Shown one piece after another: positions 6,200-58,633 of a stretch of 64,000 nucleotides of DNA. Each line of letters begins with the position of its first letter. The stretch's first letter is position 1. The DNA is from Phoronis australis (taxonomy: Eukaryota; Animalia; Phoronida). The notes beneath the pieces are model-generated. The model was given only the letters and a program-made list of their open reading frames with translations, ran no database searches and was not told where the DNA came from. The stretch spans positions 1 to 64,000 of the forward strand of contig NMRA01000103.1 of NCBI GenBank assembly GCA_002633005.1. The letters are read 5' to 3'. A program made the position numbers and the translations under genes.

Positions 6200-6930
6200 A
6201 TATGTCGGTCATAACAGACGACACTTTCGGACTTATCTGAATTCAGCTGCGCGTCCTAGTGCCAATATCAGAATTTTACGTTTGCCCCTGTGTCTTCGAA
6301 GTTCCTCGACGTTTTTTTGTACGGATAAATCGTTTTTTGCATCATTTAGTGGCCATTGTTACAATTGGCTTTTGGCGTCGGTCGTCAGAGAATTATCATA
6401 TAAAATTTGGCAGACGTGTTTCTACTGAGAAGAGCACGACAACCGTCAATTTTGGGACAACTTCGACTACACTGGTGCCCTTAGTTTTTTAGCGTTCGCA
6501 GGTGTATCTCTTAGCTCCTTGCTGGATCTTTGTGATGTCTATATGAACGTGACAACTGAGTGGTGATGGCTTTCAGAGAGATTCGACTACCACTGTGCCA
6601 CCTAGTGACAATTTTAATTTCTAAGTTATTTTCTGCGTCGAAGTTCCTTAGCAAATTTTCATGAAATTTGGCAAAGTAGTTTCTATGAATTTGACGATGT
6701 ATTGTACGCCACGTAATGGCTATTTTTTTATTTTTTTTTCGAGTCTGAGTTTTGAGGTCCGCCTCTCTTTTGGCCAAAACGTTCTAAGGGTCATTATGAA
6801 ATTAAAACTGGCAAGTGTGTTTTTACTGAGAAGTGCTTGGTACTGAGGCGCCCCCGAGGGGCAATTTTGTTCTTTTTGTTTGTGGCTCATGTATACAAAG
6901 TTCTTTGATGGATTTTCATGAAATCTAGCG
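6200..6930 (+). mobile_element. Highly degenerate fragment of the same Helentron-type tandem-repeat family
   Basis: Reverse-complement monomers (e.g. GTGCCACCTAGTG, TTTCATGAAATTTGG); boundaries approximate. Confidence 0.5.
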
Positions 6931-13547: not shown

Positions 13548-14520
13548 TATACATCCACATATACAAATGTGGGTGCATAATGCTGTCATCTCATGTCTGG
13601 GCGACCGAAGCTGGATATTCATATACTTGACAGGGTCGTTCCTTTGAAACTGACGACAGTTTTTGTACTGATCCGACTACTCGTGAGCCCCCTAGTGGCA
13701 AAGTTAGTTTTTAGATTTGTCCCTATAACAGGCCACTTCATTGACTGATTTAAGAACATTTGGCATATTGTTGAGGTGACGACCACACCATGCTAATTTC
13801 TAACGGATTCGATGGAGTTACCGTCCCTCTTCAGACCACCGTTCATTATGTCAAAGTCTGCTTTTGGCGTCTGTCTCTAGATTGACCAATAGGCTGCGAG
13901 GAGGAGTATGACACTTACAAGATGTTTTATTGAAGACAACACGACTGGCTTTGATTTTTCGACCAGTTGCAAAACTGTGGGGGTACACTGCTAGCAATTT
14001 TGTTTTTTGCCTCAATATCTTCCAAGTTTCTTTGTGGATCAACATGAAATTTTGTTTTATATTCTCATTGTGGAGGACACGGTGGGCGCTTACTTCGAGA
14101 CCGGTCTGATAACTGTGGTGTCCCGTAGTGGCAATTTAGATTTTCTTTGTGTATGCCTCAAAATCCCTAAAAAAGTTTCTAGACTGATTTTCCTGAAAGT
14201 TGGCAACTAAGTTTTTACTAGACAGTGACGTCTTCCCATTTTCGCATGTATTAGACGTATTCCGCGTCATCTGTTAGCCATTTTTGTTATTTACGAGCTT
14301 TGTTGTCTGTCTCTTGGTCAACCAAAGGATGAATACTGAAAGATGTGTTCCCACTGAGAAGGCGACAGCTGACGATGGTTTTCGGACGGGACCGACTACT
14401 GTGGTGCCATCTAGTGCCATTTTTTGCGTCCAACCCTGTTTCTCCTTTCCCCTTGCTGTATGTTTAGGAAATTTGGCAAGTTGATTCCGATAAACGTGAC
14501 TACAGATGGCTTCTTTAGAA
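13548..14520 (+). mobile_element. Degenerate Helentron/DINE-1-type element (CTCF-motif family)
   Basis: Reverse complement of the family at 34-51 kb. It begins TTATACATCCACATAT...GTGGGTGCATAATGC; motif remnants such as GCCCCCTAGTGG at ~13687. The 3' end is approximate. Confidence 0.6.
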
Positions 14521-16907: not shown

Positions 16908-16961
16908 GTGCGTGTGGGTGTATGTGCTTTCGTTAATAGCAATTCATGGTATCTTTTTCAG

Positions 16962-18675: not shown

Positions 18676-18902
18676 TTCACTGTCATCTCTTCGAATCCAG
18701 TTGTTCTATCGATCATAAATAAGTTTGAGTGGAGAGTATTGCATCTGCAAGCCGAGAAACATTGCGAAAATCAGCCGTCAAAACGTCAGCTTTTCGTCCA
18801 CGAATTCAGTTACATTTGTGCACTGTTTATGGTAACAACACGCCGACAGCTCGAAAGTACGCGTCAAATATCTACACTATATTTCACTCCAAATGTACTA
18901 TA

Positions 18903-19232
18903 ATGCGAAGGAAGGCTTTCCAATCGTCAAGTGACAGTGGAGACGACAATTCTAGCACAGAAATGAGTGATTATTCACTGCAAGTTAAGTACAAAAAGCG
19001 CGGGAGGCCAACCGGAAATAACGCGGCACGAGAGAGAACCAGGGTGCAGAGCCTGAGGAGTGCCTTCCTGGACTTGCAAAGAACGTTACCATCGGTACCA
19101 CCAGACACTAAGCTATCCAAACTAGACGTGCTGGTCCTGGCTACAACCTACATATCTTACCTCATAAAGACATTAGATGACGGTGATAATGTTCCATTTG
19201 ACACAATACAACAAAATTTCCATCCTGTCAAG
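18903..19232 (+). CDS. TCF24: bHLH transcription factor 24/23-like, exon 1 (bHLH domain)
   Basis: [48 protein letters not shown]...FHPVK is nearly identical to the TCF24 bHLH; donor aag|gtaaag, phase 0. Confidence 0.93.
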
Positions 19233-19743
19233 GTAAAGATTGCTAGTGTGTGAATGTGCGTGTGCGTGTGTAATGTTGATACATTCGTTGTCTAGTTTGG
19301 ATAAGCCCTTTAGGGTACACGAGATGGTCTCCGGGGTTAGGAATTACTTGATAATTGTGACATAGGCCCGTCCGAAATGAAATGTGGTACTTATTCTCAA
19401 GCTTACCGTACATGTTTTGGAAAAGATTGACGCGCACCCATTAGGAGAAGTGGACAAAAAGGTCCGCCTCAAAGAAACAAGAAGTCCGAGACGCACAGTG
19501 AAGGTTTTCTTTAGTCCTCCCGCTTTTTTGTCAGCAAAAGGTCAACATCGCCAGAAATTCGAGCCTCCCATATGAAAGGCTGGGTGCGCGTATGCAATGT
19601 AATAATTTTTTTTTTTTTTAAATTCATGTTTCATGGAGGAGGGGTGGTCGTCTATCAAGGGCTATTATTCCCAAGGAATACAGACTTGTTTGTTGTTCAG
19701 CAATGTCCCGTCCGCAAATGTTTTGAACGCAGCACTGAAAGAA

Positions 19744-31618: not shown

Positions 31619-32991
31619 CTAAAAATGTGTTGCATAGCGATGTTCTAGTTCAAGTAACATTATTGGTAACAAAAGCAATTTTCTGAAACCAGTCACAGAG
31701 CAGATTCCAACCTTCACATTGCAGTCAAACGGTCAGCAACTAAAAAAACCCACAAACATCAATTTCAGCTACTGGCTCCAGTACGTTTATGAACAGCTTC
31801 ACAAACGAATGTAATAAAGGGTAAGCAAGTTCTGTAATGACACGAATCACTCGTGTCATTACAGAACTAACTTGCTTACGGTAAAAAACAAATCCCCATT
31901 ATTTTTGCTTGTTTCAGGTGTATTAATTTGAAAAAGTGAGCAACATTACTAAAAGTACCACACCACCGACTCAATTTTCAAAAAATGACACCTGGGGATC
32001 TAACGGTCATGTGACCGGAAGTCTGACACCAAATATGCAACAATTACAATGATCAGACAAAATCGGTGGAAATACAACAGCAAACACACGAGTGTCTTAA
32101 AGGGTGACTGAACAGGGTCAGTAACAGTACCAGCGACAGTAACAGTAACAGTCACATTTGGATTTCTACGTCCAAGTCAGGTGCAGTGAATGATGCCACA
32201 TAAATTAAAAATTAATTATAAATTAAACGACAGAGAAGTAGTTCTAGGGATCCTAGGAATTGACCAGAAGATCTTTACCAACTAAAACTGCCAATCAAAT
32301 TGGCAGCAAAAAATTCCAAAAACATGACAATAGGCAGACAGAGTGAAGATGAGCCATGAACTATTGTGATATCAACTTAAGGTATCACACACAGGCCTAT
32401 TTTGATGCCTTGATTTCTCCACAAAATGACACAGTAAATTCTTTCCAAATTAGGACAAAATACGACCGAACAGCGAAACTGTGTTTTATCATTTTGTCCA
32501 TGAAACATATGCAGCATCAAATTTAATGTTTTGCAAGTTCAAGTACAATACCAAGCCCAGTAGCGTGTAGCGGCTTGGTGTTGCCATGGTAATTTGTTTT
32601 CTTGGATGCTCCTCCTTCCGCCCAACATCCTTGTCAAGTAGAGCAGCCACAATGTCAAAAGCCCTTAAAACTAAAGGAGGGCAATTTGGCAACTGTTTTT
32701 CTCAAATATTGGTCAGATTTTAATGTATCCAGCTATCAAATAATGTTTTCAAAAATCCCATAATTCCTTGACTAATTTGAAACAGCTCAATTTAGGAAAA
32801 GTTGACAAATTAATCTCATCAAAGTTGTCATTTAAACACTTTTCTTTCCTTGCAGTGAACGATGTCTAGTGGTGTCTATTGTGACGTGCAAAGTTTGAGA
32901 CATATTTGGAGTGGTTGAACAAGACAGTGATGTATGAAAGATGAAAACACTCCTTTCAATTCACAACGGAATTATACAAAGCTATATTTAC

Positions 32992-33638
32992 CAAGTGAAT
33001 TGCTCTTTGTCGGTCAATAATTTGCTGTAGTTTGTTTTGGGCATCTGAATGTTGTTTGGTAAGCTCGTCTATCTGTTTGGCAAGTTGTTGGCTTTCTGCA
33101 ACAGCCTCGTTTTCACTCACGGAGTGACCAATCGGATCATGATGCCAACTGGCGATACCTTTTGGCCGAGTGGGAAGCTCTGGTTCCTCTGCTGCAGCCT
33201 CATTCCCATTAACAGTTTGGCTAATCAGACCAAAATGTCGCCTGGTTAAACCTGTCAGCTGTTTAGGCAACTTGTGTTCTTCTGCAGCCACGTTTTCATT
33301 CACTGACTGGCCAGTCAGATCTGGATGCTGACTGGTGATATTTCTTGGTTTCCCGTGGAATTCAGGTTCCTCTGGTACAGGGCGCTGAATTGTGTTTTCA
33401 GAAGTAATACCATTCAGCACAGCTGGGAAGGTGAGATAATTTGTCTGCATAGCGTGGTTGAGGGAGTTCTGTAGTGTACTGTTGACAGTGGTCCGGGGAA
33501 GCTCCGAATACTGTGTCTGAGTTGAACCACTCTCAGATTTGGACGCTAATTCATTTTGTTCTGATTTTAAATCAGCTAATTTTGATGTCTGAAAGAGTTG
33601 TCCACACTGTGAATTTGTCATCTCTGAAGAAGCTTCAC
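32992..33638 (-). CDS. SPICE1: SPICE1 large exon
   Basis: Overlaps ORF 32956-33621. Ends QIDELTKQHSDAQNKLQQIIDRQR, resembling [24 protein letters not shown]; phase 1-0. Confidence 0.88.
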
Positions 33639-33829
33639 CTAGAAAGACATTAGAGTTCCAACAATCTCAAGAAGCATGATGGTACCCTGGCCAAATAATC
33701 CAAACTGCTAACAAGTTATTTCATTCTCTCTTTTTCCAGAATAAATTGAATTTGTGCCAAAAATATCAAACCGGTGATGTACCCTGTCGCACATTACAGG
33801 TAGCATGACATAAATTGTAACTGGCACAA

Positions 33830-34041: not shown

Positions 34042-35209
34042 ACAAGAGCAACGCCGAGTGTTGAAATGCGCGCACGAATGCATTGCTAATGATGTGCTTT
34101 TAGGGTTACTTATTTGTATCATAAAAATGGCCACTAGATGGCGCAAAAACATACAATCCATCCAAAAACAGGAACATGCCACATTTCATAAAAATCTGTC
34201 AAGGAACTTCGGAGAAACAAAGGAAAACAGAATAAAATGAAATTGCCACTAGTGGGCACAGTGTCCGTTGGATCCGCCTGAAAGTGGTCGTCGTCTGTTG
34301 TTATCTTCATATAAATACACTTACTAAATTTAGTAAAGATACTGCAGTGGGTTTAAGAGATACAAATATGGGCACAAAACAAAACTACCACTAGGAGGCG
34401 CCACAATAGTCAGTCACCATCATCAAAGGTCGTCTTCACACTGAGAACATATATGCCAATTTTCAAATGATTTGGTTGATACAGTGGTGGACACAAAAAA
34501 CAAGATTTGAAAACATCAAAAATAGCCACTAGATGGTGCAAAAGACCTCGATTCCATCCAAAAACAGGAAGATAGCGTCATCACACCAATAGATGCCTAT
34601 ATTTAAAATTATATAAAAATCTGTTGAGGACCTTTGAAGATACTGAGTTAAACATAAAAAACTAAAATTGCCACTAGGGGTCACAGCAGTAATCAGATCT
34701 GTCCGAAAGTCGTCATCATCCTTATAGTCAACATCATATAAATACACTTGCTAAATTAAGTAAAGATCCTGCCAACGGTTTAGGAGATACAGTCATAGGC
34801 GCAACAAAAACAAAAACAAAACTGCCACTAGGAGGGGCCACAGTAGTCAAAATCGTCGGAAATCATCGTAAACCATCCTTTTCATAGTAAGCACATACAT
34901 GTCAATTTTCACAATTATCTTTTGAGCGGTTTGGTTGATAGAGGGGTGGATGCAAAAAAACAGTAAAAATGGCCACTAGGTGGCGCAAACTACATCGAAT
35001 CCATCCGAAAACGGGAGGCTAGCGTCATCTCACTAATAGGTGCCTACATACCAAATTTCATGAAAATCTGTTCAGGACTTTTGAAGATACAAAGGTAAGC
35101 GTAAAAAACTAAAATTGCCACTAGGGGGCACACCGGTAGTCAGATCCGTCTGAAAGTTCGTTCATGCCGTCCCACTCATGTGTCCACATATAAATATGAG
35201 GGCGCATAA
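34042..35209 (-). mobile_element. Helentron/DINE-1-type element with ~150-bp CTCF-motif monomers
   Basis: On +, ACAAGAGCAACGC..GTTGAAATGCGC end and GGGCGCATAA end; 8 motif-bearing monomers. Confidence 0.8.
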
Positions 35210-35284
35210 TAATTATTATTTTCCAATATTCCAGGGCACTCCTAGATAAGCATATAACAATGAAGACCACTTGTCTTTACTCAC

Positions 35285-35392
35285 CATACATCTTTTGAAG
35301 CTTCATTAGTCGTTCATGTGCCTTTCTATTCTCCTCACTCAGCTGAGCTATCTGACGTGTCATGGGAGAGGCGCCACCTGTTGAGCCATTTT
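35285..35392 (-). CDS. SPICE1: SPICE1 exon
   Basis: NGSTGGASPMTRQIAQLSEENRKAHERLMKLQKMY; tag/gtgagt boundaries, phase 1-1. Confidence 0.85.
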
Positions 35393-36107
35393 CTACAAAC
35401 AGCAGAGCACAAGTTCATGCCTTACAGCAAGGAGTGTAGTTCACTTGTGATCTCGTTGTTATTGCTACTACTAGCGCCGCCAAGTGGTAAATAAGCAACG
35501 GTCAAGTAGGAAGCGCAAGAACAATGAGGAAGGACGCATTTTGCAGTGAGATAAATTGCGCTAATTCATCCATGAAAACTCTAGACGTGTCACTTTTATT
35601 TTTCCTAAGGACCCAGAAAAGGCAAGGATTATTTGTTATTTTGCTTTTTCACTTTGTGTGTTCTTTTCACGGTTGGAAGACAAGTCGATTGCAGTCCCAG
35701 TGCCGCTATCGTCTGCAGTGTACACCATTGCACAGGCTACACTCTTGCCTTCTGCAGATACTTTGTCGTCAACGTAGCTCTACTGAAATTATAGGTGAGG
35801 GAGCATCAGAATGAAATACAGTGTTATGGTAGGCATGATGGCCATCGGTCATTAGAAACAAAAGTCCTGGGGTTATGCGCAAAACGAGGGCCAAATCTTA
35901 TCACCACCTCAGCACATGTTGTCAAGGGTCAGGCAAATAACCAAAATTTGTGACGATTGGAGAGGCTCAACATTCATGTGGCACACCCCTTGGTTTTCAC
36001 ATGTTTCGCGCTCCTGGGAAGGGGTCAACACCCATTATGTGCCCACCTGGTTTGCACTCCTCCCTTGTACCCATTTGCTGGCACTTGGGGACAACTCCTC
36101 CCTGAAC

Positions 36108-36260
36108 CAGTGGCTGGTTTAGAGGGGGCCAAGTGGGCCATGCCCCCCTAAAATTCTCCCAGATTCATTTGGCAGTTTGGGGGTGCGAATGTCTGACGGG
36201 AAAAATCCTGGCTAATACTCTTTAGTGCCCACCTAACTCAAAATCCTGGATCCACCACTG
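36108..36260. mobile_element. 153-bp MITE with 5-bp TSD
   Basis: CAGTGG...CCACTG termini; TSD TGAAC. Confidence 0.75.
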
Positions 36261-36416
36261 TGAACCCTCAGGAGCAATCACTAAAAATATGTAGTTCATG
36301 GAGGTATGAAATGTTACACGGAACTGTAATTTGCCTTATTAAGAACTCAAACACGAAACAAAACCATGATGGCTTTTGAAGGGAGCTTCAAGAGAATGAA
36401 AGCAGGTACACTGTAA

Positions 36417-37882
36417 TGGAGCATGCCACCCAAAAAACAACCTAATTTGTGTCAATTTAGCTCTAGCAGTTCCATAACGACACGTACGGTTGCGTTACCT
36501 GACACCTGACGACAGACGGAGGTGTTGAAATTTTCCAATGACATAATTGGTTTCACACGCAGTCTGTTCAGCAGTTCACAACACGGGTTAATGGTGTCAG
36601 CTTATCGCTTGAATTCATCGTTTAACACCAATAAATCACCAAACTTCGATGTAAAACCCTTAAAAATACACCGAGTTCTTATAAAAACGTGTTGTTTTAT
36701 TTCGCTGTTGCGGATTTATTGGTATTTGAACACACCATAGCCTACAAAGTTTGGCAGGCCAATAAGATCCGTAGCAGGAGTTTGGGGTCTGCTCGGAGTC
36801 AAATTCAAAGTATTCTCCGCGAGATACAGACAAAAGAACCTAGATCTGTGTTGTTTAGACTTGTGATTTTTTTAGTTCTAAACACAAAACGCTTGTTATC
36901 TTGACCAGTGGCTCGGAGTCCGATCAGGCCCATCGCGGCCGGCCGTATTGACTCGTTATCCCGGCCAGTGGCTCAGACATCACAAACATAAACCAGCCAA
37001 AGTTCAGTGGAAACTAAACTTCCAGCCTAAAATACTATACTAGGAGCCTAAGTAATGTGCACGTGATTATGTTGGTGAATTAGCCACGAAACTGCAAATC
37101 TACTTACTCGTCAGGCGCCGCGAATTCAGGATCCGCTTTAGGCCACAGCACCGTCTGGGCAGAAGTTGTACATTGACAATCATTATTTGAATAATTTAAT
37201 GTAAATAAAGATTCCCCTAACACCTGGCCGTGGGATGGAAATCGAGTTGTTTTACAACAGTTTCTGCAAGCAAACACTAAATTAGCATGAGCTCACACGG
37301 TCTCGGTGTCCCGTCAATTAGTTTTATTGCACCTAAAGCCGGTAACACAGTGATTTATTCATTGCTGGCTTCCCAAATCATTTGAACTCATGAACACTCC
37401 AAGGCATTACAAACTGCATGTAATGAGACAGACTTTGTTTCAGTTTTATATAAGTATTGGCTGGGTTGAGATTAATTCATTTTGAAACAGAACGCTCAGT
37501 AATAAATGTCAACATGGCAACGTCTGCAGGCCACAGACACGGAAATGTTTCACGGCCTCATACTTGCTATTTACAGCGAACCTTTCATTCTTCACTACCA
37601 CGATTCACTTCCTAAGCATTACGGACTCTCGAGGAAGTAAAAAAAAAGATATACCCGCTTTCCAAGTAGCTGCACAGTTCGGACAAACGGGAACGATGGA
37701 CCGCAACACAGCGGCATTCACTCTGCAGATGAACGACTGACGTCGCTAGCGTCGTTTCTCACCTTCTTCACAGGTTAGCGCGACACCTATTGGCAAGGTA
37801 AGGTCGACCGTATGCGAGGCGATGTGGATATAGACCGATTAAGACGGCAAAAAAGACTAATTAAATCGGGTGGCATTCTCCT
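36417..37882 (-). mobile_element. Kolobok-type element with a decayed THAP domain
   Basis: TIRs TGGAGCATGCCACCC / GGGTGGCATTCTCCT; flanks GTAA and TTAA; THAP relic at ~37525-37705 on -. Confidence 0.6.
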
Positions 37883-38590
37883 TTAATATTGATTAAAACA
37901 CAGTCACATTTTCATTCTCATTCGATTATAAGTGGGTGTTAGTTTACGTTTACCCATTTTCAATCACACAGTAATTTTATTGCACGTCGAACATCATTAA
38001 AGTATGAATTTATCAGCGTTTACATGGTTTGGACTGCGCCACTAAATTAGTGTTGTTTATTCGCCGCTTAGGACGCTAGTGTTTCGACCGATTACCACTG
38101 CGGCGAATGACAAGATGGCAGCATAAAAGCATTACAACAAAATAACCCAGAATTCCCCGTCATGTTGGCTGACTGGGAGCTGAATTAATGGTCAGAAAAG
38201 TCTCCCCTGATGACTGAGAATGAAGGGAGTTAACAGCAATATTAGTAAGGTGACTAAGGTGTTCGTTAATTTTGCCACACCAATAGATATTACCAGTCAT
38301 TTTTGTTATTAACAGAATTAGCCGTAATGACAGGTAAACAGTACTTTGCTCAATTGGTCTTCTAATGTAACTACTTTGCACAAAACGTCAGAGGCATACG
38401 ACACTAATATGCTGCGAGGTGTTTTCTGAATATAACAGACTTGATAAGCACTAAGTAGCGCTATATAAGAAAGGGTCGTCTGATATCTGGAGAGATTGAA
38501 AACAGAGCTGTTAACTATGACGGGTATGTTTGTGAGTGACTACCTGAATGCAAGTATTTACACACGGGCAGGAATGTTGAAACAACAAGT

Positions 38591-38783
38591 GCCATCCTGT
38601 GAACACAAAAGCCCTCATTATAACGGGCGCCATCCTGTGAACACAAAAGCCCTCATTATAACGGGCGCCATCCTGTGACGATCAAGGCCCTGATTACAAA
38701 ACGCGCCATCATGAGATGATCAAGGCCTTCATCACAACAAACGCCATCATGTGAAGATCAAGGCAATCATTACAAGTGCCATT
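38591..38783. repeat. Degenerate ~38-bp tandem repeat
   Basis: GCCATCCTGTGAACACAAAAGCCCTCATTATAACGGGC and variants. Confidence 0.75.
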
Positions 38784-38834
38784 ATGCGAACAAAGCAGGA
38801 GTTCTATTGGTCAGTCTCCCACCAGCAACTATAC

Positions 38835-38996
38835 CTTTCATAACTAGTGCTGATCCAACCTTGGTTAGTCTGGGAGGGGACAGAGGTATAGCCTGGCCCC
38901 TTTGATGCTGCTGTACATGAGTGGGCAAGGCACTAAGAACGGTAGTCATCTGTGAGGCTAGCTCATCCACTGTGGGAGACATCTGGACAACGGGCA
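38835..38996 (-). CDS. SPICE1: SPICE1 exon
   Basis: ...QAIPLSPPRLTK resembles PAVLLTPPRQK; phase 1-1. Confidence 0.78.
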
Positions 38997-39446
38997 CTGG
39001 ACATAAACATACAGTATCATAAATACTCAATCTAATGCTTATTGTAATATTCAATAAAATATTCAATGTAATATTCAATGTAATAAGTGATCTTGAGCTC
39101 ATGGTCTTCCTGTACATTACTTTGAATATTACATTGAGTATTACAATGAATTGAACTTAAGACTAAAATCGAAAACTGACTACGAAGCCAAATTTGTAAA
39201 ATTTGAAAATAATGACTGGTCATTTTTTGTGTTTAAAATTGAAAAAAATTTGCAAGTCTGAACTTAAACACACGGCTATGCTCTCCTGTCTGAATTTCAT
39301 GAAAGAATAATTCTAATTTATCACTAAACAGACTCCAAACTTTGAGCGACCGGCCTCAGTAAGTTAGCCTACCCAACTTTGTAGACTACGGTACCTTCAA
39401 AATTTCTATAAATCCCTAACAGTGAAATAAAACAACTCATTTGTTT

Positions 39447-40817
39447 AACAAGAGCATTGAAATGCGCCCACGAAGGCACCGCAAATGGTGTGCTTCTAAG
39501 GGTGTTTATCAAATATTATAAAACTTCAGAGAAACAGAGGAAAAGGAAAAAAAAATAAAATTGCCACAAGGGGGTTATGGGCGCAAATCAACCATGACTG
39601 ATACTAGGAGGCATTACAGTAGTCGAAGTCGTCGGAAAATCATTGTCAACCATCATCTTCACACTAAAAACATACATGCCAATTTCCAAAATCATACTTA
39701 GATTGATTTGGTTGATAAAGTGGTACACACAACAAACAGACTACAAACTAAAATGGCCACTAGATGGCACTAAATACGTCAAATCCATCTCGAAACAGGA
39801 ACATGTTATCGTTTCTATAGCAAGCTATTTACAAAATTTCTTAAAAATCTGGAGTTTGAATTAAAGAAAAAAGAGAAAACGTAAAAAAATTAAATTGCCA
39901 CTAGGGGGCACAGGGTTTGTCAGACTCGTCTGAAAGTCGTTGCCGTCCGTTGTCAACTTCATATAAATACACTTGCTAAACTTGATAAAGATCCTGCCGA
40001 GTTTTAAAGATACAACCATGGGCATAAATAAAAATAAAAATAAAACTGCCACTAGGAGGTGCCACAGTAGACGAGGTCATCAGAAAATCATTGACAGCTG
40101 TCCTCTTCACAGTAGGAGCATACATGCCAATTTCCACAATCATCCTTAGAGTGGTTTGGTTGATGCCAAAAAACAGACTCAAAAACAATAGAAATGGCCA
40201 CTAGGTGGTGCAAAATACCTGAAATCAAGGTGAATGGATAGCGTCACCTCACTAATAGATCATTATCTGCCACAGTTTATGGAAATCCATTGAGGACCTT
40301 TGAAGATACAGGGGTGAGTGAAAAAATCTGAAACTGGCACTAAGGGGCACACCAGTAGTCCAATCTGTCCGATAGTCGTCGTCGTGATACGTTGTCAACT
40401 TCATATAAATACCTTCGCTAAATTTAATACTTTAGAGCGTTTAGGCGATACAGCCATGGGCACAAAAACAAACAAACAAACAAAACTGCCACCAGGAGGT
40501 GCCACAGTACTTGAAGTCGTCGGCAAATCATTGTCAGCTGTTTTCTTTACAGTAGGAGCATATATGCCAATTTTCACAATCATCCTTTAAGTGGTTTGGT
40601 TAACAGAAGGGCGGACGCCAAAAAACTTGAAAACAGAAAAAAATGGCCACTAGATGGCGCAACGTAATCTAATCCATCTGAAAACGGTCATCTGCACATC
40701 TGCCAAATATCATCAAGATCCTATGAGGGGTTTAGGAGATACAGGTGCTAACCGCCAGATGACAGACTTCCAGACAGAGATGATGACAATATGCACCCAC
40801 AAATGTGAATGCATAAA
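39447..40817 (-). mobile_element. Helentron/DINE-1-type element, same family
   Basis: Same termini, ~9 monomers. Confidence 0.78.
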
Positions 40818-41575
40818 AACTCAATGTATTTGTAAAGGAATTTACATCGAATTTTGATGATCTATTGGTGTAAAATGATGAATTCAAGCGAAAAGCTAAC
40901 ACAAGTAAGCGTCCTGGGAACTACTGAGCAGACTGTGTTAGAACCTGTGATGTCATTGTTTAATTGTCCTGGGAACTACTGAGCAGACTGTGTTAGAACC
41001 TGTGATGTCATTGTTTAATTTCAGCAGCTCTGTCTGCCCTCCGGTGTAAGGTAAAAGAACTGAACTTGCTGTTATCGAGTGGAGCTACTCGATCTAAACA
41101 CATTGGTTTTTGGTGGCATTCCCCTTAAAAAACTCTGGCCATTTCCAGAATTAACACAATCAAAAAGACGTTGATGATATCAATGCACTTTTCATGGCCT
41201 CGACACCGATCTACTGCTCCACTATGTAATCCTGTCATTACAGCTTGTATGCGAGGTGTTACGGTATATTGTCAATATGGCCAATGATACTTGTGGATAC
41301 TTGTTATGTCAAGCACGCACAAATTGAATGTTGAGGATCAGTTCAGTTATAGTCTGACAGTCGACTTAAGGGGTCGACTATGTACCCACTCTGCCCCAGC
41401 CGAGTTATGTTCAACTTTAGTTCCCCTCTGCGTTGGATATTTGGAATATTGCAGTCTTTATGCTTGGAAGTCTCGACACAACATGTTTTCACAAGTCACG
41501 AGGAACAACTTGAACAACAACTTGTAAGTTTATCTTAGGCAATGTGCTGAATGCACAGTCCATTTTCAGTGAATA

Positions 41576-41826
41576 TCTACTTAAAATTAAAATATCAGTG
41601 CATTACCTCACCATTCTACTTAAAATTAAAACATCAGTGCATTACCTCACCATTCTACTTAAAATTAAAACATCAGTGCATTACCTCACCATTCTACTTA
41701 AAATTAAAACATCAGTGCATTACCTCACCATTCTACTTAAAATTAAAATATCAGTGCATTACCTCACCATTCTACTTAAAATTAAAATATCAGTGCATTA
41801 CCTCACCATTCTACTTAAAATTAAAA
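41576..41826. repeat. 39-bp minisatellite x6
   Basis: Unit TCTACTTAAAATTAAAAYATCAGTGCATTACCTCACCAT. Confidence 0.95.
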
Positions 41827-42712
41827 AAAAAGCATGACTAATCAAAACGTGTCGATGGTTATATCATTGTTAAGTGATGAAGACTAGGCGAACTGTGACG
41901 CCATTTTGTTACTTTACCGTACAAGGAAACACTGACGCGAACCATGTTGAGCATACCGATCAATTTTTTTACCACAAACGACTCAAACAAAATCTAATTA
42001 GGTTGTTTTAATGAGAAAAATGCATACAAAAGTTTTCAGTGACTGCCGATAGCAGACTTCTCATGCTATGACTTAAAATTTAAAAAAATCAAAGCCAGAA
42101 TTTTCAACTATCTGACTGTCATTTTTCAGTCCGCTCAGGATGGTTAATAATAGTTACAGCTGTACAAAAGTCATGTTTGAATTTTGTGACAAACTGCGAC
42201 AAAAGTTCGATGCATTGCTTAGAGTGCAGGCCCATTGTCACAAGGGATGATTTATTTCCAACAGCCCTGCTCAGCAAGCCTATCTACCTGTTTTAGGAAT
42301 TTTGGAAGTATTATGTAATGTTTTTGTTATCTATGCAATTGTAATGGCAGCTTCCAGTGGTCTCCTTCATTTTTCATGGTGACAACAAAATTTTTCGTCT
42401 ACACCTATGTCGTTACATGACCTGTTCTTTCACGTATAGCCCTTAGGAGACGTTCCCGGTGGTCACCCGCTACAATTGTCTAATTCACCAAACAAAATCA
42501 AACACAACCCAGACACCTTTATGAAAACAATATTGAATTCACAGCAACTGCTCAAAATTAAAAAAATACATGACACTCCTTCACAATATTTCACATCACA
42601 GCCTCTGCCTGAAATTTACTTTAATTGTGAGAATGACTGAACACTTTAAGACCACATTATTGCAAAGTATTAATTTCCACCACTGATACTGCACGATTCT
42701 ATAGAGCTCTAC

Positions 42713-42824
42713 CTGAAGCATCAGTCTGCCTAAGTGTGTTGTCTTCACTTGTCATGGAGGAGGGACTGATCACAGCATTTGTCTCCCTTGTATCATGGCC
42801 TACATCACCTGGCTTCAGCAAACT
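42713..42824 (-). CDS. SPICE1: SPICE1 exon
   Basis: SLLKPGDVGHD...TDAS; phase 0-1, cag/gtagag boundaries. Confidence 0.75.
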
Positions 42825-43091
42825 CTGTGAATAAAGTCCAACAAATAACTTCATCACTATTTTATCCATAAGTTGTACAAAATAAGACATCTCTGATAAG
42901 GTGTAGACACTATGCAGAAATAAAGAACTAGGTTTGAGGAACCAGAATGTCATACGTATGATGAGTTTGTAAAATCTACAAAATTAAATATAAAGATGAG
43001 CGGTGAGTCTTAAACTACTAGGTGATGATGAGCAATTTATTACATTTAGGAACTGAACAAAATATCAAAACAAATTATAAGTGCAGCATAC

Positions 43092-43184
43092 CATCAAATA
43101 GTTGAACTTTCCTTCAGCCTCATTCCTATACACAATGAAGTCGGCTTCAAGTTTTGCATGACTGTCACGTAATGTGGTAAACTC
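43092..43184 (-). CDS. SPICE1: SPICE1 exon
   Basis: EFTTLRDSHAKLEADFIVYRNEAEGKFNYLM; cag/gtatgc boundaries, phase 0-0. Confidence 0.85.
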
Positions 43185-43825
43185 CTGTCAAGAGAAAGAG
43201 AACACAGTACATAAACACAAAAAAGACTTATTCTAGTACATAACGTATTGAAGTTTATAATAGCATGAGGCAATCATTTAGAGTAGTACACAAAATATTA
43301 AAGTTTGTACTAGCATAAAGCAATCACTTAGTGTAAGTAATAAAGTTTGTAATAACAATATGCCTAACATGCATAAACGTGACTACAAAACACCAATTGC
43401 ATATCAAAAACATAACAAAACAACCCTACTGTTTGATCAGCTGTCAAATTAGAATCCCCGAAAAAAATCCGATGGTGCATTAATTAGCTGATTCCAAGTA
43501 ACGTGCATTTGTTGGTCGACACATGCAACATAGAATTGCAACAATCAATCACAGAACTAGTCCTTTTTCATTGTGGTTAGTGGGAAAAGTTGTCTGATAT
43601 TGTTCCTCATTTGGCCATGGTTTATAGTATAATAGAGAATGGCCAGGTGTTACATTTATGGTAAAATAAAGAATGGTGAGGTAATGCATTTATGATAAAA
43701 TAAAGAATGGTGGGCAGGGCTTGGAATGACCAATGACAAAAAACGCGGAAAAATTTTACGGCCCAAATCATGCCCGATGTGTACCTTTCCCCGACAAAAA
43801 TCGGGAGGACTATAAAAAATCTCAC

Positions 43826-43918
43826 ATTCGTTAAGACGTCAGTAAGAGTGCGTATGTTGACCACTTCATCCATCAACTGTTGTCTCACGTTAGTCTCGCT
43901 CACCAAGATTTCTTCAGT
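43826..43918 (-). CDS. SPICE1: SPICE1 exon
   Basis: TEEILVSETNVRQQLMDEVVNIRTLTDVLTN resembles EVETRQQLEQ...RELIDALTAE; phase 0-0. Confidence 0.88.
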
Positions 43919-44161
43919 CTACAAATTGAAAGATGTTTTTTTATTGCTGCAATGGACAGTTACACAGCACTACACTGACAACTGGGATCAAACACAGAGA
44001 AATGGACAATTTATCAAAAATTGTAAATAACACTGACTCCAGCAGTGGTTCGGAAGGAAATAATATTCTAAGAACGTAATTGTAGTGTATGAGAAAAGGA
44101 AAAGTGCAAAGCTCAGAACCCTAAAAATAATTTGTATAACGATTAACTCAACTGAGCGTAC

Positions 44162-44362
44162 CTCTTTAAGATAACTAGAAATCCTTGATATCGCTTCCAT
44201 GACAGAGTCCGCATATCCAGTATAGTCCTCACTTAGCAGGGTGCTGTTGGTATCATAAACATTATTGTTGCTGATATTGGTGTTCTTTTTGTTGTTGTTG
44301 TTGTTGTTGTTGTTGCATCTACGCTCCATTAAGCGAAGCTGAGCGTCAATATCACCAAATCC
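44162..44362 (-). CDS. SPICE1: SPICE1 exon (coiled coil, poly-Asn insert)
   Basis: GFGDIDAQLRLMERR...YTGYADSVMEAISRISSYLKE resembles [21 protein letters not shown]. The acceptor (ttaaag) is weak. Confidence 0.8.
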
Positions 44363-45559
44363 CTTTAACATTATGCAATGTACGTTTCATTAAGGTCACC
44401 TGCATCACACACACGAGCGCGCGCACGCACGCACACGCACACACAGTGGTATCAATCACCCACAAACATTACAAACAAAAGTAATCAGACAAGATACCGT
44501 TTCCCAGTCATAACGGTTAATTCTGTAAACAGCAACAAGAGCAACGCAGAGCATTGAAATGCATCCATGAAGGCACAGTGAGCTTTTAGGGGTGTATATT
44601 TGTATCACAGAAATAACCACTAGATGGCGCAAAATAAGTCGAATGGATCCAAAAACAAGTAAATAGAAAGCTACTTATCAAATATCATAAAAGCTGTCAA
44701 GAAACTTCAGAGGAACAGGAAAATGGAAAAAATGAAATTGCCACTAGGGGGGCAGGGCTCAACACTAACGGGTGCCCGATTGCCCGTGTACATGTAGATT
44801 TTGCGTCGGGCAAGTGGAATTTGAAAAGTACTTGCCCGATGGGCAAGTTAAAAAGCTGGCCACATAGGCAAATAGATCCTAAGACTGTCTGCTCGACATT
44901 TGCTCCAAAGTAACGAACCCCGACACAAGCCTAAAAAGCGTCGAAAAAGCCCCTGTGGCAGTCAAAGAAACTCCCGTGTTCGAATGAGCACCGAAAGGAA
45001 AATAGAACGAGTGTGATGCAGCGTGCACAGATGACGCCCGCATTAAAATCCTTTCGATTCTCTAAACGTGCCCTGCTTCTGAATAAGTTGTCATGTGATA
45101 CTACTGATCGTCTGCACTCTGGCAAAACGTCCAAACAAGGACAAATTGCTAAAAAACGAGTTCAGAAAGAATCAAAGCAACAATAAGAAACGAAAAGAGT
45201 GCGGGGATGGGTTCCGTCATGGGAAATTAGGTTTCCTGGCCTGAGAGACGGTGAACAAGGGATGACGTGTGATTTTTGCCAGCGTTTCCCAAGTACAGCT
45301 GGAAGCACCGCGTTCGTCGGCGGATGTAAGTCATACAGATAAGCGAAAAAGCTAAAAAGTGAATGACTGACCACATATTTTCTACATTACACGCAAGTTT
45401 TTAAGGCCTGGTATTTATTCAGGGGGAATTCCAAAGGAAATTCTTATGAATTCCCGGCTCCCGGTGGCGACTCCCGAAAGAAGAGGAATACGGTCTCTGA
45501 ATTGAAGGGTGACTTTTTCGCGGTCAATCTATTTTCCAAAAATGTATTTATTTATTGAA

Positions 45560-46646
45560 AACAAGAGCAATGCAGAGCGTTGAAATGCGCCCACAATTGC
45601 ACCGCATACGGTATCCCTCTAGGGTTGTTTAGTGGTACCATAAAGTGGCCAGTAGAGGGCATATATGTAGTATGTTGTACTTAGCAAAATGGAAAGGCAT
45701 GGTCATTATCTCCTCAATAGGCTAGGGGCAAAATGTGAGTAATCTTAATAATACAAGCACATCCTATACACCAGTTGTTTAAAGCAACACAGAAACATAG
45801 AATTAAAAACAAATTTACCAACATACGAGATTAGAACAGCATTAGAATGCCAGAAACAAATTTCTACTTGGAACTTTTCCTTCATAGTCACGAAGTAACA
45901 CAAAGTATACACCTGAAGACCTATGAAAATACAGAGGTCAATGTAAAATACTAAAATTGCCACTAGAGGCAAATACTAAAATTGCCACTGGAGGCATACC
46001 GGTAGTCAGAATCATCCTAAAGTCGTCATCGTCCGTTGTCAACATCACATAAATACACTTGCTAAATTTAGTAAAGATCCTGCAAACGGTTTGGGAGATA
46101 CAGCCATGGGCGCAAAAAAACAAAACTGCCACTAGGAGGCGCCACAGTAGTCGAAATCGTCGGAAAATCATCGTCAACCGTCCTCTACATAGTAAGCATA
46201 TACATGCCAATTTTCACAATCATCCTTTGAGCGGTTTGGTTGATAGAGGGGTGGACGCACAAAAACAGACTCGAAAACACTAAAAATGGCCACTAGGTGG
46301 CGCAAACTATGTCAAATCCATCTGAAAACAGCAGGATAGCGTCATCTCACTAATAGATGCCTATATACCAAATTTCATGAAAATCCGTTCAGGACTTTTG
46401 AAGATACAAAGGTAAGCGTAAAAAACTAAAATTGCCACTAGGGGGCACACCGGTAGTCGGATCAGTCCGAAAGTTCGCATATGGCGTCCCATTCATGAAT
46501 GGAACATATGTGCCAAATTTCATGAACGTATGTCAAAGGGTTTTGGAGATAGAGCAGCGGATGCCGGACGCCGCCCGGACGGCCGGCCGGACAGAGATGA
46601 CGGCATAATGCGTCCACATACATGTATAAATATGTGGGCGCATAAT
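45560..46646 (-). mobile_element. Young full-length Helentron/DINE-1-type copy
   Basis: On -: subTIR TTATGCGCCCAC, short IR, CCGT-rich microsatellite, monomers, subTIR GTGGGCGCAT, hairpin, CTTGTT end; no TSD. Confidence 0.85.
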
Positions 46647-46946
46647 AAAAGTATATGTGGCATTATTATATGTTAAAATTTGATTTTAATTTTAACACAA
46701 GGCAACGATGACCAAAACTATGTAATATTTTTACGGATAGCAAAAATTCAAATTCAGCTTAAGCAACAACTCAAGTTTAATGCATGAGGGAGCATAAACT
46801 AATGAATACACAGTAGTGTCAAGAGTTCATGTCCTAACTAATTTCTGCGCCTTTGAACGTGAGACAATGGTTCAGATACCATAGTTACTCTTCTATGATT
46901 TGTCTCTCTCATGTTTTGACACACCTTATAAATAAATGTTCTATAA

Positions 46947-47964
46947 CAGTGGCGGATCTAGGTTAACACAAAGGGGGGGGCTCAACATTTTGTCTGTTAA
47001 CATTTGCGCAAAGCACGATCATTGTAGATGCGCATAGCACCGGATGGAGGGAGGTCGGGAGGGGGGATTGCCCCAGGAAAAATTTTCTGTTTTTTTTCCT
47101 CTAAAGATCAAGCATTTTCCTAGATTCCTGAAGTATTATCCAAGAAAAAAGGCAAAGAAATAAAAAACACGGAGAACGTGTCAAACTTGAAAAACTGCAA
47201 TTACCACAGACTGAAACTCACGACCTGGCATTTAGAGCGTGCGTGCTTTACCACTACACCACCACGAATTTCACTCGTAATTTAACACTAAGAGACCTAC
47301 TTGTTTATGGTCCACAGCGTTTGCGCGTGAAACCTACTTCTCTTTGTAATGTTTATTACACTTTTTATATTTTGTGCAATCAGTTCATAACAAATTTGTT
47401 GTATTTAAAATAGTCTTCAATTGCTCAAAAAACCAAATCCGTAATTTTGTGTTGGCATTAATGACGCGATTGCTTTGGAAATCGTCTTAAGGTTTGACAA
47501 AGAGAGAATTATGAGTTTCTGAGTGATTCACTAAGGCTTCCATTAAAATTGACATCTTACCAGCAGCTTTTGTTTTTTCAGCGTCACTCAGCTTCCATCT
47601 TCTTTAAAAAATGAAGTAAATTTTCGTCATTGCACAGTGGAGCAGACGACGGAAACGGGGTCGTAGTGCGCAGCGCCACTGCCGGTCGCCTGGGATATCG
47701 CGGGAGAGCCTATACTTAGCCATAGTTCCGTTACGAATGCGCCGCGTTCCGAATTTGACACGTGAAAATGGATCTGAGCCCTCTCCCTCCCCAAACACAC
47801 TAAAACTGCACACATTTAAATCTTGTTTCTGCCGTATAATGTTAATTACCGAGGTTAATTAATAAACTCAACATTTCCCTTTGCTCTTGCTGTTTTATCT
47901 TTTGCGACAGCCAAGGGGAGGGGGGGGGGGGACAGATGCTCTGCCCCCCCTAAATCCGCCTATG
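46947..47964. mobile_element. CAGTGGCGGATCTAGG family, copy 2
   Basis: TIRs CAGTGGCGGATCTAGG / CCTAAATCCGCCTATG; TSD TATAA. Confidence 0.88.
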
Positions 47965-48800
47965 TATAAGAAGAATCGATAAAAAATAGCAACTCATGTA
48001 TATAGCATGCACGACACAAGAGGAGGCTCAGCACGGGCAGCCCTACCGTAACAGATTACCTAGGTGTGCACATGCACGGTGCTATTTGGGATTGTACTTG
48101 CGGCAAGTGAATTTGTTGTTCGGGCAAGTGGCTTAAAAAGTTAATGTTGAGCCCTGGGGGCTATGGGCGCAAAAAAACATAACTTCCACTAGGAGGCGCC
48201 ACAGTAGTCAAAGTCGTCAGAAAATCATCGTCAAGTGACATCTTCACACTAAGAACATATATGCTAATTTTCACAATCATGTTTAGAGTGATTTGGTTGA
48301 TAGAGGGGTAGATGCAAAAAACAGATTATAAAAGAGTAAAAATGGCCACTAGATGGCACAACATACATCACGTCCATCCGAAAACAGGAGCATGTCATCG
48401 TTTCAACAGATTACTATTTACCAAATTTCATAAAAATCTATCAAGGAGCTTGAATTAGGGAAAAAAGAGGAAAACAGGAAAAATTTAAATTGCCACCAGG
48501 GGCACAGCATTTGTTGGATTTGTCTGAAAGTCGTCGCCGTTTGTTGACAACCTCACTTTTAAGTATTTAAAATACACTAACTAAATTTAATAATGATCCT
48601 GAAGAGAGCTTGGGAGCTACAGCCAGGGGCGTAAATAAAACAAAACTGCTACTAGGAGGCGCTAGAGTAGTTGAGGTCGTCGGAAAATCATTGACAGCCG
48701 TCCTCTTCAAAGTAGGAACATACAAGCCAATTTCCACAATCACCCTTAAAGTGGTTTGGTTGACAAAGGGGCGGATGCCAAAAAACAGACTCAGAAACAA

Positions 48801-50745
48801 AACAAGAGCAACGCAGAGCGTTGAAATGCGCCCACAATAGTACCGTATACGGTATCCTTCTAGGGTTGTTTATTGGTACCATAAAGTGGCCAGTAAAGGG
48901 CATATATGTAGTATGTTGTACTTTGCAAGATGGAAAGGCATGGTCCTTGTCTCCTCAATAGGCTAGGAGCAAAATGTGAGTGATCTTCATAATACAAGCA
49001 CATCCTATACATCAGTTGCTTAAAGCACCACAGAAACATAGAATTTTAATTTACCAACATACGAGATTAGCACAGCATTAGAATGCCAGAAACAAATTTC
49101 TACTTGGAACTTTTCCTTCATAGTCACGAAGTAACACAAAGTATACACCTGAAGACCTATGAAAATACAGAGGTCAATGTGAAATACTTAAATTGCTACT
49201 AGAGGCATTCCGGTAGTCAGAATCATCCTAAAGTCGTCATCGTCCGTTGTCAACATCACACAAATACACTTGCTAAATTTAGCAAACGGTTTGGGAGATA
49301 CAACCATGGGCGCAAAAAGAAAACTGCCACTAGGAGGCGCCACAGTAATCAAAGTCATGGGAAATTCAGCGTCAACCGTCCTCTTTATAGTAAGAACATA
49401 CATGCCAATTTTCACAATCATACTTAGAGCGGTTTGGTTGATAGAGGGGTGGACGCCAAAAAACGCAGTAAAAATGGCCACTGGGTGTCGCAAACTAGGT
49501 CGAATCCATCCGAAAATGGGAGAATAGCGTCATCGCACTAATAGGTACCTACATAGCAAAATTTCATGAAAATCCGTTAAGGACTTGTGAAGATACAAAG
49601 GTAAACGTAAAAAAATAAAATTGCCACTAGGGGGCACACTGGTAAGCGGATCCGTCCAAAAGTCGTCATCGTCTGTTCTTAACATCATATAATTACACTT
49701 ATTAAATTTCGTAAAGATCCTGCGAACGGTTTAGGAGATACAGCCATAGGCGCAAAAAAAAACAAAACTGCCACTAGGAGGTGCCACAGTAATCCAAATC
49801 GTCTGAAAATCATTGGCAGCTGTCTTCTTTATAGTAAGCACATACATGCCAATTTTCACAATCATCCTTTGAGTGGTTTGGTTGATAGAGGGGTGGACAC
49901 AAAAATACAGACTCGAAAACAGTAAAAATGGCCACTAGGTGGCGCAAACTATGTCGAATCCATCTGAAAACGGGAGGATAGCGTCATCTGACTAATAGGT
50001 GCCTACATACCAAATTTCATGAAAATCCGTTCAGGACTTTTGAAGATACAAAGGTAAGCGTAAAAAACTAAAATTGCCACTAGGGGGCACACCGGTAGTC
50101 GGATCCGTTCGAAAGTCGTCATGTTCTGTTGTTAACATCATATAAATATACTTACACAATTTCGTAAAGATCCTGCGAACGGTTTAGGAGATACAGCCAT
50201 AGGCGAAAAAAAACAACTGCCACTAGGAGGTGCCACAGTAGTCGAAATAGTCGGAAAATCATCGTCAACCGCCCTCTACATAGTAAGCATATACATGCCA
50301 ATTTTCACCACCATCCTTTGAACGGTTTGGTTGATAGAGGGGTTGACGCACAAAAATAGACTCGAAAACACTAAAAATGGCCACCAGGTGGCGCAAACTA
50401 TGTCGAATCCATCTGAAAACGGGAGGATAGCGTCATCTCACTAATAGGTGCCTACATATCAAATTTCATGAAAATCTGTTCAGGACTTTTGAAGATACAA
50501 AGGTAAGCGTAAATAAATAAAATTGCCACTAGGGAGCACACCATTAGTCGGATCTGTCCGAAAGTTCGCACATGCCGTCCCATTCATGAATGGAACATAT
50601 GTGCCAAATTTCATGAACATATGTCAAAGGGTTTTGGAGATAGAGCAGCGGACGCCGGACGGACGCCGCCCGTACGGACGCCGCCCGTACGGACGGACCG
50701 AGATGACGGCATAATGCGTCCACATATAAATATGTGGGCGCATAA
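48801..50745 (-). mobile_element. Young full-length Helentron/DINE-1-type copy with an expanded monomer array
   Basis: Same structure; shares a ~340-bp unique block with 45600-45950; ~10 monomers in ~450-bp trimers. Confidence 0.85.
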
Positions 50746-51699
50746 AAATTACCACTAGGTGATGCAAAATATCTTGAATTATTCTGAAAACAAATAGATA
50801 TCATCACGTCACTAATAGATGCCTATCTGCCAAATTTTGATGGAAATCCGTTGAGGACCCTAATTTGAAGATACAGAGGTAAACGTAAAAATACTAAAAT
50901 TGCCGCTAAGGGGCACACCGGTAGTCCGATCTGTCTGAAAGTCATCATCGTCCGTAGACAACCCCATATAAATTCATTCGCTCAAATTTAATAAAGATCC
51001 TGCAGGTTGTTTAGGAGATACAGCCATAGGCGCAAAAACAAACAAAACTGCCACTAGGAGGCGCCACAATATTTGAAGTCGTCCGAAAATCATCTTTGGC
51101 TGTTTTCTTCACAGTAGGAACATATATGCCAATTTTCACAATCATCCTTACAGTGGTTTGATTGACCGAAGGGCGGATGCCAAACAACAGACTCAAAAAC
51201 AGTAAACATAGGAACACATCTTCCAAATCTCATGAGGATTTTGTGAGGGATTTAGGATAGAGCTGCGGTCACCGGACGCCCAGACAGAGATGACAGCAAT
51301 ATGCACCCAAATATAAATATGAGGGCGCATAAAAGTGACTGATTGGGCAGCAAAATTCTAATTAAAGAGCGGTTTAGCCCCTTTACCAACTTTCCTGGTA
51401 TCGCTTCCATGACCGACAATGACGGGGAATTAAAATTCTCTGTCATTCTCAGTCATGAGGGACAATACTGTCACGTTGAATTTGGTTTGTCCAGCTGTCA
51501 TGATGAGAATTCCAATTTATGTTGTCTGAATACTGCAGTATTCTTAGCATAGAAGAACAATACTGATATACAGTGACTGTTCATCACAACTGCAAGTAGT
51601 CATCAATTCTAAAAATCCCTACCTACATGGAGTACTTGGATGTACAATTTGAAACCCTTGAAAGATTAAGCACAAATGCTTGAAAGGTCAAGCACAAAC

Positions 51700-57572: not shown

Positions 57573-58633
57573 CAGGGCTCAACGTTAACTTTTTAAGCTA
57601 CTTGCCCCCTTCGGTCAAGTAGCTGAAATTTTTATTTGCCCGAACAACAAACTCACTTGCCCTAAGTACAATTTCAAACAGCACCTACATGTGCACACTT
57701 AGGTAATGTGTTACCGCAGGGCTGTCTGTGCTGAGCCTCCTCTAGTGCTGTGCATGCTAAATGCTTGAGTAGCTATTAACAATTCTTCTTCTAACAATGG
57801 TCATCGGTACCTTGTATTAGTTTAAAATCAAATTTTAACATAATTATAATAATGCCACATCTACATTTATTTTCAATACATAATTACATTTTTGAAAAAA
57901 AGACCGAAAAAAGTCATCCTTCACAGCGACAATCCTGAAGACCGTATTCCTCTTCTTTTGGAGTCGCCACCGGGAGCTGGGAATTCATAAGAATTTTCCT
58001 TTGGAATTCGCCCCAAATAATTACACGGCCTTTAAAACTGTGTAGTGTAGAAAATAACATGTGCTTTTGCGTTTAGATGAATGACTTGCATCTGCCGACG
58101 AACGCAGTGCTTCCCACTGCACTTGGGAAACGTCAGCAAAAATCACACGTCATCCCTTGTTCACTGTCTCGCAGGTCAAGAAACCTAATTTCCCACGACG
58201 GAACTCACCCCCGCACTTTTTTCTACTCATATTGTTGCTTTGATTCTTCCTGAGGTCATTTTTTAGCAACTAAACCAAGGGCAAGGACATTTTGCCAGAG
58301 TGCAGATGATCAGTAGCATCATTTGACAACTTATTCAGAAACTGCAGGGCACGTTCAGAGAATCGAAAGGATTTGACCACGGGCATCATTTGTGTACGCA
58401 GCATCACACAATTTTCCTGACGATGCTCATTCGAAGACGGGAGTTTCTTTGATGGCCACCAGGAGTTTTTCAACGGTATTTAGGTTTATGTCGAGGTTCG
58501 TTACTTTGGAGCAAGTGTCGAACAGACAATCTTAGTATCTACTTGCCTATGCGGTTAGTACAGGCAGGTACTTTTCAAATTCCACTTGCCCGACGCAACC
58601 TACATGTCGGGCAACCCTTAGTGTTGAGCCCTG
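57573..58633 (-). mobile_element. Uninterrupted inverted copy of the same hAT element
   Basis: Same TIRs and reverse-complement internal sequence; degenerate 8-bp TSD AGCATGGT/AGCGTGAT. Confidence 0.8.

Follow-up and report, generated by a model that had tools for sequence, protein, structure and literature searches.

A Helentron-type transposon family of Phoronis australis carries tandem CTCF-consensus motifs, likely kept by selection among transposing copies

Non-autonomous Helentrons of the DINE-1/HINE type are defined by subterminal inverted repeats (subTIRs) of at least 11 bp and other structural features (PMC4067079). Like Cg_HINE of the Pacific oyster (PMC7492417) and DINE-1/HINE elements elsewhere (PMC4067079), an element family found in the phoronid Phoronis australis has subTIRs of 11-12 bp, an inner inverted repeat (IR), a GTCC-type microsatellite, short arrays of 140-180-bp repeats, a 3' subTIR with a palindrome, and T-rich insertion sites. 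Five copies lie at positions 34042-51332 of a 64,000-nucleotide stretch of contig NMRA01000103.1, referred to as "the window" in the following. Since central repeats of 140-180 bp are ordinary in oyster HINEs (PMC7492417), the spacing of about 150 bp seen here is ordinary as well. The Phoronis element differs from the oyster HINE in having one motif for the factor CTCF per monomer and a higher-order unit of three monomer types. The oyster HINE arrays lack the motif: CCACTAG occurs 54 times and CTAGTGG 11 times in a supplement text of 3.37 million characters, possibly truncated and mostly array sequence.

ISX of Drosophila miranda is a Helitron-type element. It likewise spreads a motif for a chromatin complex (MSL), but comprises 77 copies, is host-selected and forms no tandem array (PMC4384637). 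In C. elegans, Helitrons with heat-shock elements (PMC6927752, PMC8896005) also supply most of the motifs for one factor by means of a rolling-circle element; there, however, the factor is HSF-1, its binding has been demonstrated, and the elements are canonical Helitrons rather than HINEs. The Helitron-derived periodic An/Tn clusters (PATCs) of C. elegans (bioRxiv 10.64898/2026.08.08.743475, which also mentions oyster Helitron satellites) are intronic tandem repeats proposed to act as chromatin barriers, but the proposed effect is mechanical and motif-independent, in a species without CTCF. Dispersal of CTCF motifs by transposable elements (TEs), which thereby supply a large share of sites, is known from the mouse B2 short interspersed element (SINE), human endogenous retroviruses (HERV) and MER20 (PMC7786948), as well as from the lamprey element hAT-Tip100 #274 (PMC5504073) and from zebrafish non-autonomous DNA transposons (PMC7182764). 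The zebrafish families could include HINE-like elements. These vertebrate cases differ from ours in being backed by chromatin immunoprecipitation, and neither tandem site arrays nor a Helentron are described in the accessible parts of the papers. CTCF sites carried by TEs and motif arrays carried by Helitrons are each known; their combination, a Helentron array with one CTCF motif per monomer, was not found in print (literature titles and abstract openings, with subscription journals and Repbase/Dfam outside the search).

The five copies and their parts are as follows:

34043..35209, minus strand: HINE copy 1, complete, with 8 motifs (34131-35118), delimited by termini, motifs and paired ends
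39449..40816, minus strand: HINE copy 2, of an older subfamily, 8 monomers called by a hidden Markov model, 3' hairpin partly deleted
44536-51332, minus strand: HINE copy 3 overall, old, in three pieces
44536..44752, minus strand: 3' piece of copy 3, motifs at 44617 and 44741
44753..48156, no strand assigned: unrelated terminal inverted repeat (TIR) element ending in CAGGGCTC...GAGCCCTG; its junctions place it within the G-run of a copy 3 motif
45562..46645, minus strand: HINE copy 4, young, within the TIR element, motifs at 46129, 46290 and 46435
48157..48802, minus strand: middle piece of copy 3, 4 monomers
48803..50745, minus strand: HINE copy 5, young and complete, sitting in an A/T tract 6 bp from a copy 3 motif
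48803..48836, minus strand: 3' end of copy 5, with subTIR (48826-48836), 6-bp-stem hairpin (48809-48823) and end CTCTTG followed by T
49285..50565, minus strand: central array, 449-bp trimer in 2.9 copies (Tandem Repeats Finder, TRF)
50645..50700, minus strand: GTCC/CCGT-type microsatellite
50712..50745, minus strand: 5' end of copy 5, where the subTIR (50733-50743) folds with an inner inverted repeat into a hairpin (DNA fold)
50746..51332, minus strand: 5' piece of copy 3, motifs at 50752, 50903 and 51051, and a subTIR/IR hairpin of its own

The number of five copies given in an earlier note on this DNA thus stands, with three of the five being nested: copy 3 is interrupted twice, by the TIR element and by the young copy 5. 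The TIR element contains, besides copy 4, a repeat resembling miniature inverted-repeat transposable elements (~46947-47960), and has self-BLAST matches at 57636-58633 and 10973-11940. Copy 5 reaches up to 96% identity, over one trimer, with copies on other contigs.

We assign the family to the non-autonomous Helentrons (HINE) with near certainty, in line with the earlier note, on the basis of subTIRs, hairpins, microsatellite, end logo and paired ends. Read on the minus strand, the element consists of the 5' subTIR/IR hairpin, the GTCC microsatellite, the central repeats, the 3' subTIR, a stem-loop and the CTCTTG end. The two subTIRs of copy 5 (48826-48836 / 50733-50743) are a perfect 11-bp inverted pair, which is the minimum length in the HINE definition. 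The 5' subTIR pairs with the inner inverted repeat as a hairpin (-10.3 kcal/mol, z -4.7, equalled in 0 of 200 shuffles for copy 5; z -4.0 in a second copy), and the short 3' stem-loop, with a 6-bp stem in both folds, is energetically weak (z -2.1 in a young and +0.8 in an old copy). No open reading frame of 120 aa or longer is present within the copies. A T follows the 3' end in 63 of 65 fetched ends, and each of the three positions preceding the 5' end is a T in 71-82 of 90 cases. Target-site duplications were not detected, the paired flanks sharing nothing beyond Ts (for nested sites, the monomer consensus served as the reference, as no true empty site was seen).

The earlier observation of motif-bearing element copies is confirmed. 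All seven motif coordinates and sequences that it quoted are correct, the measured spacing from 49624 to 50526 being 147, 161, 145, 143, 161 and 145 bp, and its trimeric unit of ~450 bp was recovered by TRF as the 449-bp unit at 49285-50565. It had counted roughly 35-40 sites by eye; on the plus strand of 34042-51332, its pattern has 23 exact matches, 31 with at most one and 35 with at most two mismatches. The stricter CTCF consensus CCASYAGRKGGCRS, which is the one from the earlier note and not a JASPAR matrix, has 14 exact matches and 25 with at most one mismatch in the same interval, every one of them on the plus strand. In the whole window we count 28 strict matches with at most one mismatch versus 0.34 expected, and 0 of 100 shuffles equal that number. 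Two claims need to be qualified. The motifs do all lie on the plus strand of the window, but the element's own 5'-to-3' direction is the window minus strand, so that the array motifs are antisense to the element. Also, each monomer does carry one motif, but among the three monomer types of the central array, A (CCACTAGGGGGCAC), B (CCACTAGGAGGYGC) and C (CCACTAGRTGGCGC), only the consensus sequences of A and C match the CTCF core exactly, whereas type B, one third of the types, has one mismatch, at position 9.

Conservation of the motif was assessed with a trimer consensus derived from 107 trimers, by which 741 monomers were then detected with the motif masked. The unbiased statistics refer to 365 of these (even samples, terminus-chosen loci and the window); 273 monomers from motif-chosen and 103 from similarity-chosen loci were set aside. 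Masked alignments misregister some motifs, and the statistics were taken from unmasked alignments of the masked-detected monomers. Types A, B and C are mutually 59-66% identical, yet 12 of the 14 motif positions are the same in all three, compared with 67 of 168 columns overall and 9 of 14 in the best other window (P=6e-4); the longest run common to the three types is GCCACTAGG. Those motif positions that do vary, 9 and 13 among types and 8 among subfamilies, coincide with degenerate positions in the consensus. The impression that the motif is better conserved than the rest of the monomer holds across types and after adjustment for base class, but not for raw identity: in old copies, 5, 20 and 22 of 369 other windows match or beat the three motif windows, whereas none of the 369 reaches any of the three motifs once A/T, G/C and CpG class are taken into account. 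Old copies that were not chosen by motif show a common alternative allele in 2 of 26 G/C columns of the motif versus 48 of 96 in the rest of the monomer (P=8e-5). The rare-variant rate of young copies is 4.3% in the motif versus 5.5% in the background at G/C and 3.8% versus 2.8% at A/T positions; neither difference is significant, and the motif is therefore not a cold spot for mutation. Conservation of the motif hence lies between subfamilies, in agreement with selection at the level of transposing donors, after which inserted copies decay in a largely neutral way. In view of this subfamily-level conservation together with background decay in young copies, it is likely the donors, and not host insulators, on which selection acts; that the motif is under selection among donors we regard as very probable.

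The host encodes and expresses a CTCF with conserved fingers 3-7. At its locus (G000:C3674, L018), the best PDB match is CTCF (E 2e-81), and the protein is 85% identical to CTCF of Lingula anatina, the closest named match among 120 matches listed, as would suit a spiralian host. The protein has 11 fingers, and a YDF motif lies 36 residues upstream of the first; YxF is a contact site for cohesin. Spliced RNA reads were present in two of two runs of one study. Of 13 sequencing runs listed, none bears a ChIP or ATAC label, and for 10 the library is not recorded. The helices of fingers 3-7 read TSGELVR, ELSKMKR, DTYKLKR, QSNSLKS and RKADLRI, their human counterparts TSGELVR, EVSKLKR, DTYKLKR, QSGTMKM and RKSDLGV. 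Host CTCF is the predicted and probable binder of the motif; a weight matrix built from host sites only is circular and was not taken as proof of affinity. One of the introns of this CTCF gene harbours a sense-oriented HINE copy with three motifs (L109:4516-5065, G000:C3674), for which chance can be the explanation, given thousands of copies.

Dispersal of the family throughout the genome, as the earlier note had supposed, is borne out by at least 2,853 intact 5' ends (exact matches), with none for the reversed control. In 80 evenly spaced 10-kb samples of large contigs, 14 contained a total of 65 monomers, the family making up 1.9% of bases; extrapolation from these samples yields ~41,000 monomers genome-wide. 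The strict CTCF consensus occurs 15,009 times in the genome versus 43 times for the reversed pattern, and 12,691 of the sites have the CCACTAG form. The HINE family supplies about 80% of the strict CTCF-consensus sites sampled: 78 of 101 in the surroundings of the first 100 sites listed for contig C1, a lower bound since some others resemble distant relatives, and 18 of 22 in the even 10-kb samples. Outside the family, the same motif at one mismatch is enriched too (23 versus 2 reversed in the even samples), and therefore the host has its own stock of the motif. Repeatedly nested copies form clusters, as in L074 (G000:C16:21000-30999) and L077 (C23); in the former, more than 40 monomers are packed into 10 kb and insertions lie 6 bp from motifs. 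Contigs of two other organisms and a marine metagenome contain the family too, at 80-99% identity, which may represent relatives, contamination or transfer. Among the 40 differences listed, out of 108, none falls in a motif, which is a weak indication.

The uniform strand of the motifs in the window reflects an orientation bias that is seen genome-wide. Flanks are T-rich on the element sense strand in 78 of 92 locus-strand groups, and at a distance of 2-6 kb they are still T-rich in 56 and G-rich in 52 of 69 cases on this strand, the element's own GC skew being about zero. Two repeats used as controls were unbiased (7/12 and 7/17). A second HINE-like family (4/4) and another repeat (0/4) were one-sided, so the bias may not be specific to this family. 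Stranded RNA reads over the copy in the CTCF intron are mostly in element sense (194 versus 8 and 142 versus 6), most of them stemming from other copies. Hundreds of RNA reads run past the element 5' end into unrelated flanks, suggesting read-through from host genes. From these data we infer that copies are mostly intronic and sense-oriented, with motifs antisense to transcription. In the window, candidate exons with AG/GT borders were noted at 32956-53000 (-); they would belong to a minus-strand host gene with all five copies in its introns. No Pfam match was obtained for the 236-aa frame (32956-33666).

We lean slightly towards an explanation according to which the HINE monomer motifs likely bind CTCF and are kept by selection on transposing copies rather than by a need of the host for insulators. 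The element would be mobilised in trans by a Rep-helicase-endonuclease through rolling-circle transposition, with T-runs as targets and host introns, in sense orientation, as the most frequent location. Next to A-tracts and at intervals of ~150 bp, bound CTCF would keep the donor accessible to the transposition enzyme, so that intact motifs would give a donor an advantage in copying; after insertion, most copies would be methylated and degenerate. Incidentally, the family would supply most CTCF-consensus sites of the genome, co-oriented within arrays and with transcription. Open chromatin is favoured as the benefit to the donor because bound sites 145-161 bp apart beside A-tracts would, at the well-known size of a nucleosome, exclude a nucleosome between neighbours, but we put the chances of this particular benefit at a little under even.

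Several observations weigh against this explanation. The strict consensus is kept in only 18 of the 65 evenly sampled monomers, and 32 of the 65 have at most one mismatch. The motif of type B is CCACTAGGAGG, and the strict consensus is exact in just 1 of 105 B monomers. In raw identity, two A/T-rich blocks are conserved as well as the motif, and therefore the monomer has further constraints. Old copies have fewer rare variants at G/C positions of the motif (12.3% versus 15.5%, P=0.003; monomers within one array and subfamily are non-independent, so that all P values given here are optimistic), and therefore room is left for weak host selection. The CpG within the motif of types B and C decays, with 9.3% transitions versus 2.8% at other C/G of the motif; the type A motif is without CpG. 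CTCF as the binder is itself a prediction, albeit a probable one. Finally, the family termini were not found around eight fetched loci of autonomous Helentrons, not all of the stretches extending to both element ends.

Among the alternatives, one would have the host maintain the arrays because they function as insulators or as anchors of cohesin loops. This would agree with the family's share of about 80% of strict sites, the co-orientation of motifs within arrays and with transcription, the YDF motif upstream of the CTCF fingers, the slight deficit of rare motif variants in old copies, and the documented TE-derived CTCF anchors of mammals (PMC7786948). However, young copies gather rare motif variants at the background rate, which also leaves the earlier notion of a mobile insulator cassette, in the sense of one maintained by the host, without support. 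CpG transitions in young copies amount to 13.2% versus 3.2% at other C/G, and by place to 14.8% within 25 bp of the motif, 11.9% farther away and 9.3% inside it (non-CpG ~3%). Local protection from CpG methylation near the motif was not detected, there being no drop within 25 bp (an indirect measure and a germline average). This fast CpG decay without a protected zone suggests that typical copies are germline-methylated, and it speaks against the idea that ordinary copies are shielded from silencing; neither shielding nor loop anchoring finds support in the sequence. Moreover, nested insertions break the arrays, one of them within a motif, and domains bordered by CTCF are poorly established in spiralians (PMC10658182, PMC7854359). 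We thus consider maintenance by the host unlikely.

Alternatively, the motif could be selected for another binder, such as a zinc-finger protein or the Helentron Rep, or for a DNA feature such as a CTAG hairpin, the match to CTCF being incidental. CTAG resembles the 3' end of Helitrons, and each motif can form a weak stem of 3-5 bp (-1.8 to -4.6 kcal/mol), but the stems differ between types and the family ends with CTCTTG, not CTAG. The non-consensus A retained in type B and the additional conserved blocks would suit such a feature. On the other hand, a strict CTCF match is expected by chance at only 1.7e-5 per 150-bp monomer, and the varying positions are the degenerate ones of the CTCF consensus, which makes an incidental match quite unlikely. 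Least probable, and disfavoured, is the neutral case of an ancestral monomer that chanced to hold the motif and was then amplified, conservation being an effect of alignment or mutation rate: in raw identity the motif ranks near the top without leading and young inserted copies do decay neutrally, yet 12 of 14 positions are kept across such divergent types, subfamily alleles are nearly absent from the motif, the equal rare-variant rate in young copies leaves no cold spot, and monomers were found with the motif masked.

Returning to selection among donors, the central repeats of HINEs would gain a possible function: they would assemble sites for a host factor that are selected because the element itself profits from them. 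A more far-reaching version, in which the transposon uses host CTCF as a cofactor, with each central monomer being a selected CTCF site, wrote ~80% of the consensus sites of this spiralian genome and, its copies being mostly co-oriented with transcription, laid thousands of polarised intragenic cohesin barriers of several sites each, appears rather doubtful to us. A caution follows for such invertebrate genomes, in which counts of CTCF motifs, statistics on their orientation and enrichment at boundaries can be dominated by one transposon. The role of CTCF in spiralians becomes testable here, as binding and insulation can be compared across thousands of arrays of varied age and integrity, which amount to a set of natural mutants.

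Guidance of insertion by CTCF was considered but rejected as unproven. Seven of ten nested insertions lie 5-6 bp from a motif, where a target-sequence model from non-nested sites predicts 37% (P=0.04, or 0.07 with one duplicate counted once). At non-nested sites, a motif is found within 200 bp in 4 of 62 cases, two of which are family remnants, the background being 11 of 761.

The genome contains an autonomous Helentron of the OTU-Rep-helicase-endonuclease type with an open frame of 2,119 aa. Large autonomous Helentrons (OTU protease, Rep, PIF1 helicase, endonuclease) were seen at L091:4788-9998 (G000:C523), where the 2,119-aa frame is uninterrupted, and also on C1446, C546 and C3484. A second HINE-like end with its own hairpin adjoins an autonomous Helentron frame at L098:6900-8660 (G000:C546:63900-65660). 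The cluster of motifs that it bears is of the housekeeping type (YY1-, ETS-, NRF1-, CCAAT- and E-box-like) and is a possible parallel case of Helentron repeats made of host-factor sites.

Elsewhere in the window, outside the interval treated above, two degenerate members of the family have the opposite orientation:

6200..6900, plus strand: degenerate family fragment
13600..14500, plus strand: degenerate family array with motifs still recognisable (13685, 14404)

A run of 783 N next to a 14-bp tandem repeat occupies 16145-16930, and an exon of a basic helix-loop-helix gene is found at 18729-19253 (+; Pfam HLH, E 9e-15).

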